From Candidatus Undinarchaeales archaeon (GTDB taxonomy: Archaea > SpSt-1190 > JASMDC01): a stretch of DNA of 37,446 bases. The stretch's first letter is position 1, and each line of letters begins with the position of its first letter. A program made the translations under genes and the position numbers. The notes under the pieces were generated by a model. The model saw only the letters and a program-made list of their open reading frames with translations, was not told the DNA's origin and ran no database searches. The stretch spans positions 1-37,446 of the forward strand of contig JASMDC010000033.1 in NCBI GenBank assembly GCA_030753015.1. Direction: 5' to 3'. Shown piece after piece: positions 1,577 through 18,610 of the stretch.

Positions 1577-3625
1577 CCCATGTTCGTCAGTTTCCCCTGT
1601 GAATTTCGCATTCTCCAATCATAGATAAGTCTCCATTGGTGTTCCCTGTCACGTTTTTCCTGCAAAGGATGAACTGAATTGCACCAAAAACTAAGAACAG
1701 ACTTATAGAGTATAAAGTATTTAAGTACTACGTTTATTACATAATATTAGGTACAGACCATGCATTTGCTATCACACACGCGGAAGAAGAGCAGCAAGAC
1801 CTACACCTATTACAGCCTCGCAGAGTCCTACTGGGAGGACAAGAAGAACAAGAAGAGGGTGCTGTGCTACCTGGGAAGGCTCACACCACTCCAGGCCCAG
1901 AAAATACGAAATGCGCTAAGGGTCACCCGATCGCTGGACACATTCGTTGCGAGCTTTGATGACATCCTCTTCGACGACCACTGGAGCTACCTGGATGTCG
2001 CCTTCCTCAACCACCTCTGGGACGATTGGGGCCTCTCGGATGTGTTCCCGTCGCCCGAGGAAACGAGCCACACGAGGAAGAAGGACATCTCGACCGCCGA
2101 CATCGCAAAGGCCCTGACCTTCTACCGGTGCCTGGAGCCGGGGAGCTACCTCTCCTCGGCAGAGTGGTTCGAGGGGACGGCATGCGATCACATCCTCGGC
2201 ATAGACGGCTCGCACTTCAACGACTCCCGGGTGTACCGGGAGCTGACCATGATAGACGCGCTCAAGGAGAAGCTGGAGAAGTATCTCTACACCACTCTGA
2301 GGGAGCGGGACGAGGAAGCCTTCAAGGTCATCTTCTATGACCTCTCCGACTCGTACTTCGAGGGCACCAAGTGCAAGCTCGCAAAGCCGGGGATCACCAA
2401 GGCCAACGGCTTCAAGAGCAAGAAGATCGTCCTCTCCCTCCTCCTCAACTCGAAGGGTTACCCCTTCTCGTGGGAGATCCTCGAGGACTACACCTCGGAT
2501 GTCAAGACGCTCACGGCCAACGCGGACCAATGGAAGGAGCGGTTCGATCTCCCAAAGATCATCTCGGTGTTCGATCGCGGGATGGTGTCCGACGAGAACC
2601 TCAAGCACCTGGAGGAGAGCGAGACCTACCTGTACATCACCGCCCTCGACAAGGACCAAGTCGCCGGGGTGCCCGGCATCGGCATTGATCGGTTCAAGGG
2701 TCTCACGGTAGATAACGTCGGGGAGAAGGTCGCCCGCTCACGGTTCCTCACCAGGTACGACGACCAAGCATACTACGAGGACCTTGGGAAGGCCGAAGGA
2801 TCGGTCAGGCGTCACATCCTGGTGTTCAACCCCGAGCTCTTCAAGGACCAGCGGGGGCTGCGCAAGGAGCTGATCCAGAAGGCGATCGACTACCTGAAGG
2901 AGGAAGGGGCTGCGCTGCTGAAGGCGAAGAAGAGCAGGCAGGAGAAGCCGACCGAGCAACGGATCGACCGCAAGCTCAAGAAATTGAGCGTGAAGCGCTT
3001 CATCGGCTACGAACTCAAGGAAATTGAGTTGGAGAGCGGGGTGCGGACCTTCGAGCTCAGATACTGGAAGAAGGGGGAGGCGATCGAGAAGGCCAGACTG
3101 ACCGACGGCCTCTGGGTACTCGTAACCAGCATAACCAAGGATACGCAACCGGAGGAGTTCAAGCTCGGGCCGAAGGAGATCATCAGGGCCTACCGCGACA
3201 AGAACCGCGTGGAGGAGGCGTTCAGGGAGCTGAAGTCGTTCATCAAGTTCAAGCCGACATTTGTCTACACGAGGGAGCATGTCCGCGCCCACTACACCAT
3301 CTGCGTCCTCTCTTACCTCTTGGACGTGACGGTCACCAACGGGCTGCGCGAGAGCCCGATAAAGGGTGTGGGGAGCGTGGGAAAGGCGTATCAGATCATG
3401 GGGAGGTGTGAGGTCGGAAAGGTGAGTGTAAGGGGCACGGATCTCAGCGGGAAAAAGCTCATGCCATTGAACAGCACACAGAGAGCCATCTTGAAATTGT
3501 TAAATTGCGAGTATCTAGGAGAGAAGGAGTACCTGAAACCTCTGGGGATCAATAGCATGTAGAACAGACCGGAAAAATCGATGGCCTTCCTGCTAACGGT
3601 TAGAATTCAATCTGACGAACATGGG
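1577..3625 (+). mobile_element. Complete IS1634-family insertion sequence (2049 bp)
   Basis: TIRs CCCATGTTCGTCAG (1577-1590) / CTGACGAACATGGG (3612-3625). 6-bp direct repeat ATATAA at 1571-1576 and 3626-3631. Single transposase ORF. Confidence 0.95.
1760..3562 (+). CDS. IS1634-family DDE transposase
   Basis: 600 aa. N-terminal YxYxSLAESY...YLG, DDE motifs YDLSDSYFEG / VFDRGMVS / VEEAFRELKS, C-terminal HVRAHYTICVLSY. Confidence 0.95.
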   Translation: MHLLSHTRKKSSKTYTYYSLAESYWEDKKNKKRVLCYLGRLTPLQAQKIRNALRVTRSLDTFVASFDDILFDDHWSYLDVAFLNHLWDDWGLSDVFPSPEETSHTRKKDISTADIAKALTFYRCLEPGSYLSSAEWFEGTACDHILGIDGSHFNDSRVYRELTMIDALKEKLEKYLYTTLRERDEEAFKVIFYDLSDSYFEGTKCKLAKPGITKANGFKSKKIVLSLLLNSKGYPFSWEILEDYTSDVKTLTANADQWKERFDLPKIISVFDRGMVSDENLKHLEESETYLYITALDKDQVAGVPGIGIDRFKGLTVDNVGEKVARSRFLTRYDDQAYYEDLGKAEGSVRRHILVFNPELFKDQRGLRKELIQKAIDYLKEEGAALLKAKKSRQEKPTEQRIDRKLKKLSVKRFIGYELKEIELESGVRTFELRYWKKGEAIEKARLTDGLWVLVTSITKDTQPEEFKLGPKEIIRAYRDKNRVEEAFRELKSFIKFKPTFVYTREHVRAHYTICVLSYLLDVTVTNGLRESPIKGVGSVGKAYQIMGRCEVGKVSVRGTDLSGKKLMPLNSTQRAILKLLNCEYLGEKEYLKPLGINSM

Positions 3626-12739: not shown

Positions 12740-12831
12740 GATGATACCCTGCGGACGAAGGGTTATACCCCTTTACCCCTACTGGGCCGGTATGCAAACC
12801 TTTTTAAGGAATATGCGCACCATGGGAGGAC

Positions 12832-12958
12832 GCGGGGGTACCCGAGCTGGCCAAAGGGGCCGGACTTAAGATCCGGTGGCTTAGGGCCTTCACGGGTTCG
12901 AAACCCGCGCCCCTGCACGTCTGCGGGAGCATGAGCGAAAGTCCCGTCCCCCGCACCA
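12832..12958 (+). tRNA. tRNA-Leu(UAA) with 39-nt intron at position 59/60 (12903-12941) and encoded CCA
   Basis: Anticodon arm CCGGA-CT-TAA-GA-TCCGG and long variable arm. After removing 12903-12941: T-arm ACGGG-TTCGAAT-CCCGT, acceptor GCGGGGG/CCCCCGC, then ACCA (88 nt mature). TATA at 12801-12808. Confidence 0.9.
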
Positions 12959-12960
12959 GT

Positions 12961-13034
12961 GCCCCGATAGCTCAGCTGGCCAGAGCGCTTCCTTGGTAAG
13001 GAAGAAGTCCCGGATTCGAATTCCGGTCGGGGCT
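12961..13034 (+). tRNA. tRNA-Thr(GGU)
   Basis: Acceptor GCCCCGA/TCGGGGC, anticodon arm CTTCC-TT-GGT-AA-GGAAG, T-arm CCGGA-TTCGAAT-TCCGG. No encoded CCA. Confidence 0.95.
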
Positions 13035-13040
13035 CTTCAA

Positions 13041-13046
13041 TTTTTT
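13041..13046 (+). terminator. Oligo-T archaeal terminator after the tRNA pair
   Basis: TTTTTT 6 nt after the tRNA-Thr discriminator base. Confidence 0.6.
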
Positions 13047-13182
13047 GACCCATCTAAGCTTAACGGCGTACGATAATGGATGTATATACAATTTATGTTA
13101 AACAGTCATAATGCTCGGCCACCAAGTAATCATTAAGGCCGACAGATGCCGGTCATCCGAGCCCTCCCCCAGGGTGTCTTGA

Positions 13183-13425
13183 ATGACATATGATCAGTCC
13201 CATATCGCGAAACGGTTGGGCGTGGTGGTGGTGCTCACTATGGCCATTATATTCGTTCCAGCCGCCGCTACTGCCAGCCCTTTGCTTTTCTCGAGCCAGC
13301 TGTCCACCAGAGGTCCGCCACTTGTCGGGACGGTGCTGGGATGGCTGACGATCGAGTTCACGCTCGGTTTCATCACGGCATGCGCACTCGCTGCCCTTCA
13401 CAAGCGACGCGATCACGAGAACTGA
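13183..13425 (+). CDS. Hypothetical small membrane protein
   Basis: 80 aa, two hydrophobic stretches. Fills the gap and converges with the next gene. Confidence 0.5.
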   Translation: MTYDQSHIAKRLGVVVVLTMAIIFVPAAATASPLLFSSQLSTRGPPLVGTVLGWLTIEFTLGFITACALAALHKRRDHEN

Positions 13426-13427
13426 GC

Positions 13428-13982
13428 TCACGGCAGTTCGAAGCCCTTGGGCAGTCCATCGTGGACGGTGAACCCGCGGGAGCGGATGTCTGCGAGCAGG
13501 TCCGCCGTTCCCCGTGCATCGACGATGCCACTGAGCATGTACACGTCGCCCTGGTCCTGGACAACGGCAGTGACCATGTCGGTGTCGTAGTCGTTCTCGA
13601 CCTCGAGGTAGATGTCCTTGCTGACGGCGTCGTGACGCTGGATGTCGTCGAAATACTCGTCGACCATGCCACGTCCCAGCTCGAGCAGCAGGCTCCCGTG
13701 GAGGCGGAGGTCCTGCCCGTGGTAGTGGGAGGCCATACCGGTGTACACGGCGTCGAAATGACCGGACGCCTCGGCCCTTGCACGCACGTCGGCCGCTAGC
13801 TCGAGGGCCTCGCTGGGCCCGAGGTTCGTCTCCTCGGCGACGAACAGGTCCGTGGCCGAGAGATAGGTGGCCCGGGCCGTGAAATTGATCATGAGACCGT
13901 CACCGCTGACGTAGAGCACCATGTCGTTGTCGTCGGCGGCAGCATCGGCTATGAGCGCGTCGAAGTCGTCCCCATAGTCCAT
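13428..13982 (-). CDS. Hypothetical acidic protein (184 aa)
   Basis: Starts at MDYGDDF (ATG 13982), TTAAA box about 26 nt upstream, GC3-biased. The longer track ORF is a shadow of the upstream gene. Confidence 0.75.
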   Translation of the reverse strand: MDYGDDFDALIADAAADDNDMVLYVSGDGLMINFTARATYLSATDLFVAEETNLGPSEALELAADVRARAEASGHFDAVYTGMASHYHGQDLRLHGSLLLELGRGMVDEYFDDIQRHDAVSKDIYLEVENDYDTDMVTAVVQDQGDVYMLSGIVDARGTADLLADIRSRGFTVHDGLPKGFELP

Positions 13983-14008
13983 GCGAGATAGAGCGGTCGG
14001 GCCGCCTT

Positions 14009-14596
14009 TTAAGTTTTGCCCACAACCGCGCCGGAACCGTTGCGGCAGATGCCCACGAAGTCCTTCACGATCCACTCGTTGCGTACCTCCGGGTGGAAGA
14101 GCACGCCCCACAATTGCCGCTCCGGATGCCTGAACGCCTCCGCCCGGTCCTCGGTCCCTGCAAGGAGCCTGAACCCGGGGGGCAGCGAGGGGCCGAGGTT
14201 GTGGAGGTGGTACGCCTCGAACGACCGTTCCTTGCCGAGCACCTCGTCGTCCTCCAGGACGGTCGTCTGCTGCATCCCGATGACGGGCCATGGAGTGACC
14301 TTGCCGCCGTGGAGGGCGGCGATGAGCTGGGAGCCGGCGCAGATGCCCAGCACGGGCGTCCGGACGTTCCGGAGCCAGTCGAGCTCGCCGAGCAGCCCCT
14401 GCCACGCGTGGTCCTTGATCGCTGTGCCGCAGAGCACGATGCCGTCGGCCGCCCTGCATGCCGCTAAAGACAGGTCGCTCAGGTGGACGGTCCCTGCCAT
14501 CTCACCGGCACCCCCGACGATGGCCGACACCGGATGGACGAACTCGAACCGCGACAGTGACCCCCGCTCCCCGCACAGGTCGACGATGAGGATCAT
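14009..14596 (-). CDS. Class I glutamine amidotransferase (GuaA glutaminase-like)
   Basis: Catalytic triad motifs LGICAG and FHPE. ATGA overlap with the upstream gene. Confidence 0.92.
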   Translation of the reverse strand: MILIVDLCGERGSLSRFEFVHPVSAIVGGAGEMAGTVHLSDLSLAACRAADGIVLCGTAIKDHAWQGLLGELDWLRNVRTPVLGICAGSQLIAALHGGKVTPWPVIGMQQTTVLEDDEVLGKERSFEAYHLHNLGPSLPPGFRLLAGTEDRAEAFRHPERQLWGVLFHPEVRNEWIVKDFVGICRNGSGAVVGKT

Positions 14597-16166: not shown

Positions 16167-17225
16167 TTAAATCTCTTGGGCAGGGTCGGCGGCCGTGGTG
16201 CGGTCCTCCGGGTACACGATCCGGAACACCTTGACGTTACCACCCGGAGATGTGTGGACGAGCTCCACCTCGTCGGATCCCTTCCCGTCCAGGAAGAACA
16301 ACCGTGTGAAGAGCATGTCCTTGGCCTTGTCCTCCATGTACACCAGGATGTCCTTGGTGATGACCACCATACCGGGGATGATCGTGGCGTTCTGTCGGTT
16401 CGGGACGTCCATTACCTTTGGATTCCCTCCGAAGATGTAGTTGCCCAGGATGCCCTCGACGTCGGTATGGAACTCACCGTCATCGGTGAGGTTGCCCAGG
16501 CGGATGACGGGGATGAAGCGGAATTTCAAGTCCACCATGAGGTCGATTCGCGCCATAGGCTCTATGACCGTCCCGTTCGGCTGCCTGTACGGTACGTAGT
16601 TCATGAAGATGCCCGTCTGGCCGCCCCGGTCCTCGCCCGTCTCGAGTTTGTACAGGTAGGTGAACTTGGTGCCGCACGATGGCCTGACGCACTCGGGACC
16701 GGTCCGGTTCAAGTGGGCCACGGCGCACTCCTGGGGGATGCAGTCCTCTCCCACGCGCGAGATCCAGTAGAACTTGACCATGAGCCCCTTGTCGACGATT
16801 ATGTAGGCCGGGCGGGACCTGCCCTCGGTGTGGTGGTCGATGAACACCTCGCCCTCGCACTGGGGCGGCGTGCCCCGGTCGCACTTGCGGAGCGAGAAGA
16901 GCTCGTCGTCACCGGTGCTCATCAGCAACCGGCCCATGTCGACGTTCACCGGGGCGACGTTCAGCCCGTCACCGGTCACGACGTCCCTACCGGCCACGTC
17001 CTTAACCCACCGGCCGTAGTCCCACCACGTGAACACGATGGCGTTCTCTTCTGTGTTGTTGCGCATGTAGAGGAGGGCGTTGAGCCATTCCTCCTCAGGT
17101 CCAAGGGGATCGGGTCCCAGGTCGGCGGGATCCGGGGCCGCGGGAGAGAAATCGTCCTTCAGCAGCCCGATGTAGAGAGTCAGGAGAGCGATGACGAGGA
17201 TGCACGCGGCAAGGTCCCGGCGCAT
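16167..17225 (-). CDS. Single-pass membrane protein consisting of the AglB/STT3 C-terminal soluble domain
   Basis: One N-terminal TM, then WLNALLYMRNNTEENAIVFTWWDYG, DK motif DKGLMVKFYWI, MLFTRLFFLDG...VKVFRI. ATG 17225 with TTTAAA box upstream. Confidence 0.85.
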   Translation of the reverse strand: MRRDLAACILVIALLTLYIGLLKDDFSPAAPDPADLGPDPLGPEEEWLNALLYMRNNTEENAIVFTWWDYGRWVKDVAGRDVVTGDGLNVAPVNVDMGRLLMSTGDDELFSLRKCDRGTPPQCEGEVFIDHHTEGRSRPAYIIVDKGLMVKFYWISRVGEDCIPQECAVAHLNRTGPECVRPSCGTKFTYLYKLETGEDRGGQTGIFMNYVPYRQPNGTVIEPMARIDLMVDLKFRFIPVIRLGNLTDDGEFHTDVEGILGNYIFGGNPKVMDVPNRQNATIIPGMVVITKDILVYMEDKAKDMLFTRLFFLDGKGSDEVELVHTSPGGNVKVFRIVYPEDRTTAADPAQEI

Positions 17226-17329
17226 GGGCCCTCCGTGGGAGGGATGGTTTAAATGTGTTCTGGGGCCCGCCCGGGTACCGGCACGCCCCCCCCCATAGGG
17301 CTTAATGGTGCGGGCACCTTCACTTGGAT

Positions 17330-18610
17330 ATGGGGCCCGACAGCCATCCCGATCCCTTTGCAGGAAAGCGCCGCTCACGCTCGACATCCCGCTGCGTGCT
17401 CTGCCGCGGTACAAAGAACCTATGCGGGAAGCGCCGGTGCCCCGTCATCGCCCGGGCGATGGCCCTGTCTCGTACTGAACTGCAGGTCGTGGGGACCGAG
17501 GTGGCCGGCTCCTCCCCGCCGGGAGTGTTCGTGGGCAGGTACGGTTATCCGAAGGTGAGCGTGGGACCCATGCTCCCGCCGTACCACGGCGACACCGCGG
17601 TCCTGGACACACCCGAGGAATGGATGGGGCGCTCCATCCATGAAATAATCAGGTTCCGGTACTCGCTCCTGCGGGGGACGACCCCCGTCCCAGTGACCGA
17701 CCCGGGCGGGAGCCGGCTTGTTTCCGACCTTCAGGAGGTTGCCCTCTCCTCCACGCCCGTGGACGCCGAGGCCCGGTTCACCAAGCGTCCCGGCGGGAAG
17801 ATCAAGCTGAGCGCCAACGTCCAGCCCTTCGGCCCCTCGGCCCCCCTTCGGTCCTTCTCGGTCTCACCGGGGACCGCCGACCGACGGCTGGAGCGATCGT
17901 TCGGGGACACGGACCTCAAGGCAGCGGAGGCGGTGGCAGGACTCTACGATGGTGGGGTGCGGGTGAGCGCCATCCAGCGTGCCATGTCCATCGGTATGCT
18001 CGGTGTCGGCCGCCAGAGGAAGCTGGTCCCGACGCGGTGGAGCATCACTGCCACCGACTCGATCATCTCTGATACCCTGGTCGACAGGGTGAAGGACAAT
18101 CCCACCATCGACGAGTTCAGGGTCCACACCTTCCACAACCTCGACAACATCTACACGGCGATCCTCATGCCCGCCAAGTGGGCCTTCGAGTGGACCGAGG
18201 CCTGGCACCCGTCCTCGGCCTGGAACATGGCCGGGAAGCGGCCGGGGATGATATCCGACAGCGAGCCCTACGAGGGACGGACGACCTATCCGCACATAGG
18301 AGGATGCTATTTCAGCACCCGGCTGGCTGTGGCCGAGCACCTGGCGTCCGAGGGGAAGCAGGCTGCAGCGCTCGTGCTCCGTGAGATCCATCCGGGCTAC
18401 ATCCTCCCTGTCGGCGTATGGAACGTCAGGGAGAGCATCCGGGCGACCCTCAACCAGCCCTACGAGGGCTTCGACGGGTTCGAGGGGGCTTTCCGCCATG
18501 CCCTGGACCAGCTCACCATCGCACGGGAGCACTGGGTGGCTACCTGCGACCTCGTCAAGGACTCGCTCTACCAGAAGCGTCTTACCGACTACATGGGGGC
18601 GAGCGCCTGA
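17330..18610 (+). CDS. nreA: Nre family DNA repair protein
   Basis: CVLCRG..LCGKRRCP, GSSPPGVFVGRYGYPKV, RKLVPTRWSITATD, PVGVWNVRE, C-terminal PIP-like QKRLTDYM. Confidence 0.93.
   Translation: MGPDSHPDPFAGKRRSRSTSRCVLCRGTKNLCGKRRCPVIARAMALSRTELQVVGTEVAGSSPPGVFVGRYGYPKVSVGPMLPPYHGDTAVLDTPEEWMGRSIHEIIRFRYSLLRGTTPVPVTDPGGSRLVSDLQEVALSSTPVDAEARFTKRPGGKIKLSANVQPFGPSAPLRSFSVSPGTADRRLERSFGDTDLKAAEAVAGLYDGGVRVSAIQRAMSIGMLGVGRQRKLVPTRWSITATDSIISDTLVDRVKDNPTIDEFRVHTFHNLDNIYTAILMPAKWAFEWTEAWHPSSAWNMAGKRPGMISDSEPYEGRTTYPHIGGCYFSTRLAVAEHLASEGKQAAALVLREIHPGYILPVGVWNVRESIRATLNQPYEGFDGFEGAFRHALDQLTIAREHWVATCDLVKDSLYQKRLTDYMGASA

Follow-up and report, generated by a model that had tools for sequence, protein, structure and literature searches.

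How is tRNA-Leu(UAA) made in a marine archaeon whose gene for it appears to end twice? The question is raised by a 37,446-nt stretch of DNA from a Candidatus Undinarchaeales archaeon (NCBI GenBank assembly GCA_030753015.1, contig JASMDC010000033.1, forward strand), here called the window, in which the gene occupies positions 12832-12958 of the plus strand. It is the sole gene with a UAA anticodon that an ARAGORN scan of the genome (G000) detected. An earlier note, made from the letters of the window, proposed that the gene is interrupted in its T loop, at tRNA position 59/60, by a non-canonical intron within a relaxed bulge-helix-bulge (BHB) motif. The spliced cloverleaf, the match to uninterrupted paralogs and the pattern of changes in a sister genome (G001) all agree with that proposal. 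We give a probability of roughly 85% to the explanation as a whole, namely that the locus encodes a tRNA-Leu(UAA) precursor with a 59/60 intron, predicted from sequence to be excised by the splicing endonuclease EndA and sealed by the ligase RtcB.

Excision in silico gives a canonical tRNA

When positions 12903-12941 are removed by script, ARAGORN recognizes a canonical 88-nt class-II tRNA-Leu(UAA). The spliced form has seven Watson-Crick acceptor pairs, free U8 and A9, a 5-bp T stem and the T-loop TTCGAAT, and it ends in the discriminator A followed by CCA; the T-loop, both complete stems and the CCA had been foreseen in the earlier note. Without excision, ARAGORN and Rfam place the end of the tRNA at 12918/12917, and the Rfam score is 37.9 bits. 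The unspliced model requires a mismatch and an extra base in the T arm, and the ARAGORN drawing has a 4-bp T stem and a paired U8. Both finders call the unspliced gene because its intron opens with a decayed copy of tRNA positions 60-73, which is considered in a later section.

The spliced form is the one that resembles other leucine tRNAs. Two paralogs in the same genome, Leu(UAG) and Leu(GAG), are uninterrupted and score 56.8 and 47.4 bits in Rfam, compared with 37.9 bits for unspliced Leu(UAA); from the T-loop to the discriminator both are identical to spliced Leu(UAA). The same 3' part is found in the Leu(UAA) of another archaeon (G022). All 12 of the Leu(UAA) genes taken from other archaeal genomes are uninterrupted and carry T at position 60, like the spliced product, and four of the 12 come from other families of the same phylum. 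Misassembly does not account for the intron: in other metagenome runs, DNA contigs span it with 0 differences (X14 record 2, X15 record 6), and an intron-less joint was not seen in any of the four metagenome runs compared. The 20 runs listed as containing this stretch are all metagenomes sequenced from DNA.

Anatomy of the intron

All features of this gene lie on the plus strand. Exon 1 (12832-12902) runs from the 5' strand of the acceptor stem to T-loop position 59, as assigned by ARAGORN on the script-spliced sequence. The 5' strand of the T stem, ACGGG (12892-12896), pairs with CCCGT (12943-12947), so that the outer helix h of the motif is the T stem itself; its 5 bp (ho = 5) exceed the minimum of at least 2 bp needed to close the motif. 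The next four bases, TTCG (12897-12900), are T-loop positions 54-57 and form the 5' strand of the central helix, whose 3' strand is CGAA (12936-12939). These strands form four Watson-Crick pairs, and each is followed on its 3' side by a 3-nt bulge, AAA (12901-12903) and AGT (12940-12942), respectively. Both helices and both bulges are thus exactly where the earlier note had placed them. Sequence, fold and BHB scan agree on the central helix and on the 3' bulge, whereas the 5' bulge is assigned from motif geometry.

BHB motifs are cleaved after the second bulge base on each strand, a rule that in our genome-wide scan recovers the canonical anticodon-loop introns of this genome (an internal check). 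Applied here, it predicts cuts at 12902/12903 and 12941/12942 and a 39-nt intron (12903-12941), which is also the segment whose script removal is accepted by ARAGORN. Exon 2 (12942-12958) supplies T60, the 3' strands of the T and acceptor stems, the discriminator A and the encoded CCA.

On the intron side the motif is weak. The inner helix h' consists of a single stacked pair (hi = 1) followed by a C-A mismatch, in agreement with the one strict pair counted in the earlier note, while the strict hBHBh' form requires h' to stack on the 5' bulge with at least 2 bp. The Leu(UAA) motif is the relaxed hBH form. The minimum free energy (MFE) fold of 12888-12951 retains both the T-stem helix and the 4-bp helix, as well as the 3' bulge of 3 nt; its 5' side opens into a 5x2 internal loop, beyond which lies an imperfect hairpin. 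The tip of that hairpin (12912-12927) has 6 bp and a 4-nt loop, and it is partly retained in the sister genome. Inspection by eye found no box motifs of a C/D-box RNA inside the intron, for which 39 nt are too short.

Three further genes of the same design

Does this intron stand by itself? Genome G000 comprises 3.85 Mb in 117 contigs with 60% G+C, and we scanned all of it for BHB-compatible excisions, passing the spliced version of each of 1,583,789 candidates to ARAGORN. The scan returned 178 junction-spanning calls, most of which are artefacts in which an intact tRNA end is exchangeable with downstream sequence. By inspection, four T-loop cases were chosen that combine a 5-bp outer helix with the same junction and whose gene is absent or distorted when uncut. 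Besides Leu-UAA in the window (contig C44), they are Leu-CAG (G000:C49:31842-31962, intron of 33 nt), Leu-CAA (G000:C23:79592-79485, minus strand, 23 nt) and Ser-UGA (G000:C49:26885-27002, 32 nt), each interrupted at 59/60. The four intron sequences are mutually unrelated and all four hosts are class-II tRNA genes; Leu-CAA folds as a textbook hBHBh' motif. Uncut, the other three are missed by ARAGORN and reach only 19-24.6 bits in Rfam, where the cut-off is 29 bits. If the spliced readings are set aside, the genome lacks the anticodons CAA and UGA altogether, and CAG is represented only by an ARAGORN call with 5/7 acceptor pairs.

The sister genome contains orthologs of all four precursors, and there the boundary between exon and intron is visible as a boundary of conservation: 2 of 347 exon positions differ, as against 19 of 127 intron positions (Fisher p = 6e-10). 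In Leu(UAA) the exons show 0 differences in 88 positions and the intron 5 in 39, so that all five changes within 12832-12958 are intronic. Leu-CAA carries a compensatory double change, A-U to G-C, in its intron-side helix.

Some neighbouring observations concern the tRNA set as a whole. The ARAGORN intron-mode calls at G000:C62:113730-113853, C32:61936-62131 and C40:158155-158309 are among those with 5/7 acceptor pairs; several calls of this kind are probably false or mis-modelled. A tRNA-Ile(UAU) gene with a canonical 28-nt intron is located at G000:C22:36877-36978, and a pre-tRNA-Ile(UAU) is likewise described for ARMAN-2 (PMC3239211).

The splicing endonuclease and the ligase

A relaxed motif calls attention to the enzyme that would cut it. 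Non-canonical introns had led the earlier note to expect an EndA of the (alpha-beta)2 or epsilon2 type, and this expectation fails because the genome holds a single alpha-type gene. PF01974 and PF02778 match one locus only, even at E <= 10, and neither phmmer --max nor a profile of 15 EndAs of the phylum found a second copy among 27,152 open reading frames (ORFs) of at least 70 aa. The EndA protein has 193 aa, within an open frame that spans 238 aa from stop to stop, and consists of one N and one C domain, each of the two Pfam families matching once; a single gene of about 180 aa with these two domains is characteristic of the alpha4 type. The three-unit epsilon form, with a protomer of about 390 aa, is excluded by this size and domain content. 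No gene for a beta subunit was detected by these searches, and a very divergent one may exist. The same holds more widely, as each of the 17 genomes surveyed in the phylum gave a single EndA match.

The closest solved structures are the alpha4 enzyme of Methanocaldococcus jannaschii (1a79, E = 4.2e-28) and the alpha subunit of Nanoarchaeum equitans (3iey_A, 4.1e-25). Our alignment (A2) covers 15 of the 17 EndAs of the phylum, the other two being omitted since only residues 84-191 matched; the catalytic residues Tyr123, His139 and Lys170 are the same in all 15 of these sequences, and they also align to 1a79. With M. jannaschii the enzyme shares the single gene, the one N and one C domain and the aligned catalytic triad. 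It differs in the spacing between the catalytic Tyr and His, which is 15 residues instead of 9 owing to a 6-residue basic insert that M. jannaschii EndA does not have. This insert aligns without gaps to 3iey_A, its Arg and Lys residues falling on K93, K94, K96 and R97, and the basic loop of N. equitans (residues 90-98) has the same length and place. N. equitans, however, adds a separate beta subunit (3iey_B). All 17 EndAs of the phylum contain the insert, which is absent from the matches in Hadarchaeota, Methanomethylophilaceae and Thermoplasmata. In G031 and G117, two unrelated genomes with many 59/60 introns by pattern, the only EndA is again of the alpha type and carries a similar insert, which is basic in G031. 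By alignment, then, the enzyme is a single-gene, alpha-type EndA with a Nanoarchaeum-type (L3) loop, and its assembly is most likely a homotetramer. The broader idea of an endonuclease with widened specificity survives in this other form.

The loop has a history in the literature. M. jannaschii EndA is classed as narrow in specificity (PMC6379350), and Hirata et al. (2012, PMC3488258) suggested that the N. equitans loop, which adjoins the active site, may underlie broad specificity. Kaneta et al. (2018, PMC5829648) named it L3 and reported alpha4-type EndAs bearing it in several DPANN lineages and in Hadesarchaea, where they go with more disrupted tRNA genes.

The other enzyme that splicing would need is present, since an RtcB was found with a score of 586 bits. 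From the gene anatomy, its conservation, its recurrence and these two enzyme genes we infer that cleavage and ligation take place in vivo. T-loop bases 54-57 would form a helix with the final four paired bases of the intron; stacked on the T stem, this helix would present two 3-nt bulges four base pairs apart. EndA would then cut both bulges, at 12902|12903 and 12941|12942, and the basic L3 loop next to its active site may be what lets it accept the weak helix on the intron side. RtcB would join the halves into a canonical tRNA with the T-loop TTCGAAT and its encoded CCA.

Two side observations concern EndA genes. Beside the EndA gene lies a 389-aa ORF (G000:C31; L001 1962-3131, minus strand) that by eye resembles TnpB of the IS200/IS605 type and has a C-terminal zinc-ribbon motif. 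In another genome, with six matches to the 59/60 pattern described below, a 393-aa ORF (L108; G304:C6:144102-144569) has two EndA-domain matches and the size of the ARMAN-2 epsilon2 enzyme.

Alternative explanations

Several observations weigh against splicing as proposed here. In Leu(UAA) the intron-side helix is one stacked pair only, and the MFE fold of the G001 T arm with its intron differs from a BHB. The folding energies are unremarkable against shuffles (z = -0.95 and -1.13); since they are no better than those of shuffled sequences, the case is built on comparison and not on thermodynamics. On the side of the enzyme, characterised alpha4 EndAs are described as accepting strict motifs only (PMC3488258, PMC5829648), and replacing two lysines of the corresponding ARMAN-2 loop with Ala is reported to have left cleavage unaffected (PMC3488258). 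The genome is moreover a metagenome bin with an estimated contamination of 5%, yet the sister genome has the same genes. Finally, the pseudo 3' end within the intron pairs with the 5' strand of the acceptor stem at 7 of 7 positions, and in G001 this pairing is fully Watson-Crick.

The last point belongs to a competing explanation in which nothing is spliced: the functional tRNA would end at 12917, and 12918-12958 would be an inert, leftover copy of the 3' end, for example an attachment-site repeat. Both finders scored the unspliced form above threshold, and orphan copies of a tRNA 3' end do exist downstream of intact tRNA genes, as at locus L093 (see below). Such a tRNA, however, would have one additional base separating T stem and acceptor, a T stem of 4 bp and A at position 60, where the 12 relatives and both paralogs have T. 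Nor does the supposedly inert segment behave as one, for its last 23 nt (12936-12958) show 0 changes in G001, as against the five in the 39 nt of the intron, and the three sister genes of the same design make no tRNA at all unless they are spliced. We therefore regard an unspliced tRNA as very unlikely. A different kind of doubt concerns the exact cuts. In the MFE fold the motif opens on its 5' side into an irregular 5x2 internal loop, and a cut one base later on both sides also yields a 7-nt T-loop, so that splicing might use other bulge offsets (after the third base, for instance, which would leave A at position 60), or spliced and unspliced forms might both be made. The standard offset, in contrast, gives T60 as in relatives and paralogs, recovers the canonical introns of the genome and fits the exon/intron boundary of conservation in all four genes, and we judge a departure from it to be, if anything, slightly less probable still.

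Decay is the last candidate. A degenerating pseudogene could show a weak helix on the intron side together with an odd repeat inside the gene, UUA codons then being read in some other way. Against this stand the detection of no other UAA-anticodon gene, the exons without a single difference from G001 in 88 positions, the retention of a promoter-like box and the tandem arrangement with a tRNA-Thr gene, and it is the explanation that we find hardest to credit. A precursor spliced at 59/60 remains the explanation that we prefer.

How common the design is

The earlier note described introns of this kind as typical of a few lineages, and the rarity that this implies proved overstated. A pattern consisting of GGGTTCRAA, a gap of 10-40 nt, YGRANN and then TCCC was found in 123 of 401 sampled archaeal genomes (94 of 268 genera), while the reversed pattern, used as a control, was found in 12 genomes. 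By estimate about ten of the matches, those starting with an intact T arm, are probably due to chance. Matches were also rejected individually: the one in G013 (locus L044) is not a tRNA, and those in G230 consist of an intact tRNA-Leu with a hairpin behind it. For covariation we took 40 distinct inserts of this design from the loci compared and dropped five of them (two with an intact T arm, three with an incomplete T stem). In all 35 that were left, position 57 pairs with its intron partner, as A-T in 18, G-C in 15 and G-T in two, with no mismatch, although some rows are orthologs and hence not independent. An unrelated archaeon of 1.2 Mb (G031, locus L027, G031:C5) gives seven pattern matches in all, with 59/60 introns in tRNA-Leu(CAG) (47 nt, strict) and tRNA-His(GTG) (41 nt).

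The literature contains a close counterpart. In ARMAN-2 (Ca. Micrarchaeum acidiphilum), a DPANN-affiliated host, pre-tRNA-Cys(GCA) has an hBH intron at 59/60 that is likewise built on the T stem and is cleaved in vitro by the ARMAN-2 enzyme (Fujishima et al. 2011, PMC3239211). That intron is 13 nt long, its host is a class-I tRNA and the enzyme is a three-unit epsilon2 protein (PMC3239211). Here, unlike in ARMAN-2, the intron has 39 nt, only class-II tRNAs are affected, one alpha-type gene encodes the enzyme, and a decayed copy of the 3' exon opens the intron. The ARMAN-2 pre-tRNA-Pro is reported to have introns at both 53/54 and 59/60 (PMC3239211). Non-canonical introns are in general far from exceptional: tRNAscan-SE 2.0 lists 673 of them against 1533 canonical ones in 217 archaeal genomes, and its archaeal mode uses BHB models over 60 nt of flank (PMC8450103). 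Among the papers listed on Undinarchaeota, tRNA and intron, none is, by title or abstract, about the tRNA introns of that phylum. Both the type and the position of the intron are common in Archaea, and as such the Leu(UAA) intron is an ordinary one.

The decayed copy and a possible origin

What sets the Leu(UAA) intron apart is its beginning. Positions 12903-12917, where the finders see the end of a tRNA, repeat tRNA positions 60-73 in decayed form. This copy of the 3' end lies in register with the 3' exon and matches it at 10 of 14 positions in G000 and at 11 of 14 in G001. In a test that was made post hoc, 12 of 20,000 shuffled introns reached 10/14 (G000) and none of 20,000 reached 11/14 (G001). 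Local alignment of the whole intron gives a weaker signal, with 407 of 5000 shuffles for G000 and 25 of 5000 for G001. In about 36 other inserts of the 59/60 design the genuine introns do not exceed 6/14, and the sole score of 7 belongs to a chance match to an intact tRNA. Among the genomes of the phylum from which a Leu(UAA) gene was recovered, the intron is limited to one genus.

These features suggest, tentatively, that the Leu(UAA) intron may have arisen recently and may retain a trace of its birth, a possibility about which we are more doubtful than confident. If the 3' end was once present in two copies, the self-complementary TTCGAA together with the T stem would have provided a ready-made hBH motif with the downstream copy. 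An EndA of broad specificity could then have begun to splice to the downstream copy, which would have left the upstream copy free to decay. If true, this would be a concrete and datable example of how 59/60 introns arise.

Sugahara et al. (2012, PMC3293823) proposed that introns are gained when mobile elements integrate at tRNA attachment sites, and Rogers and Bendich (2025, PMC11782384) connect intron gain with direct repeats at the borders of introns; a 2026 preprint describes the arrival route of such introns as still open. Our case shares with the proposed routes a direct, if imperfect, repetition of the tRNA 3' segment, with one copy immediately following each splice site. It differs from the mobile-element route in that Pfam reveals no integrase or other element remnant next to the gene, six neighbouring ORFs having no Pfam match at E <= 0.01, and in that only 24 nt lie between the repeats. 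A tandem duplication of 39 nt that included the trailer was rejected: the 24 nt after each copy, compared by eye, agree at 7 of 24 positions, which is the chance level.

At locus L093 (G230:C1, 1440-1625) an intact tRNA-Leu(CAG) and a hairpin are followed, about 100 nt downstream, by an orphan tRNA-Leu 3' end. Integrated elements leave behind direct repeats of this kind.

The locus and its organism

An A/T-rich, TATA-like box (12800-12809, plus strand), which precedes the 5' end of the tRNA by about 22 nt, is a putative promoter of the Leu-Thr pair and has one change in G001. Comparable A/T-rich boxes, 25-40 nt upstream, are found at three of seven other stand-alone class-II tRNA genes (Leu-CAG, Leu-UAG and Ser-CGA), and none was found at Leu-CAA, Ser-UGA, Leu-GAG and Ser-GGA. 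Only 2 nt downstream of Leu(UAA) is a tRNA-Thr(GGU) gene (12961-13034, plus strand; ARAGORN, Rfam 66.3 bits), with which it is probably co-transcribed, and a run of six T after tRNA-Thr (13042-13047, plus strand) is a likely archaeal terminator. Such tandem pairs, Leu(UAA)-Thr(GGU) in the window (12955-12961) and Leu(CAG)-Val(CAC) (G000:C49:31959-31967), have 2-4 nt from the encoded CCA to the next tRNA. CCA is encoded in about 7 of the 48 ARAGORN calls of the genome.

The window encodes GyrA and GyrB, which bears out the description of the organism as gyrase-bearing, together with the archaeal markers diphthamide synthase, Nre and a DHH/GAN-like protein. Three of its long ORFs are without a Pfam match: 13428-14459 (minus strand, 343 aa), 16167-17414 (minus strand, 415 aa) and 1760-3562 (plus strand, 600 aa). 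Just downstream of the tRNA pair, at 12900-13300, G+C falls to 46-54%.

By taxonomy the genome belongs to a phylum of 17 species genomes, and the phylum is known for small-genome symbionts. Genomes of this genus measure 3.6-3.85 Mb with 60% G+C, those of phylum members outside it 0.6-1.2 Mb; the genus is a striking outlier in size, in a bin whose estimated contamination is 5%.

Significance

The general picture of archaeal tRNA introns is unchanged by these results, as the Leu(UAA) case belongs to a known and common kind. For annotation the consequences are direct. Standard finders miss Leu-CAG, Leu-CAA and Ser-UGA and mis-model Leu-UAA, the latter because its intron begins with a false 3' end, and without the spliced readings the genome seems unable to read several Leu and Ser codons. 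For the enzyme, the case lends support to the published idea that alpha4-type EndAs with a Nanoarchaeum-type loop may handle relaxed motifs. The four genes constitute natural substrates graded from strict to relaxed, which could be used to probe the role proposed for the L3 loop, and the decayed repeat in one of their introns is a possible trace of how such introns arrive.

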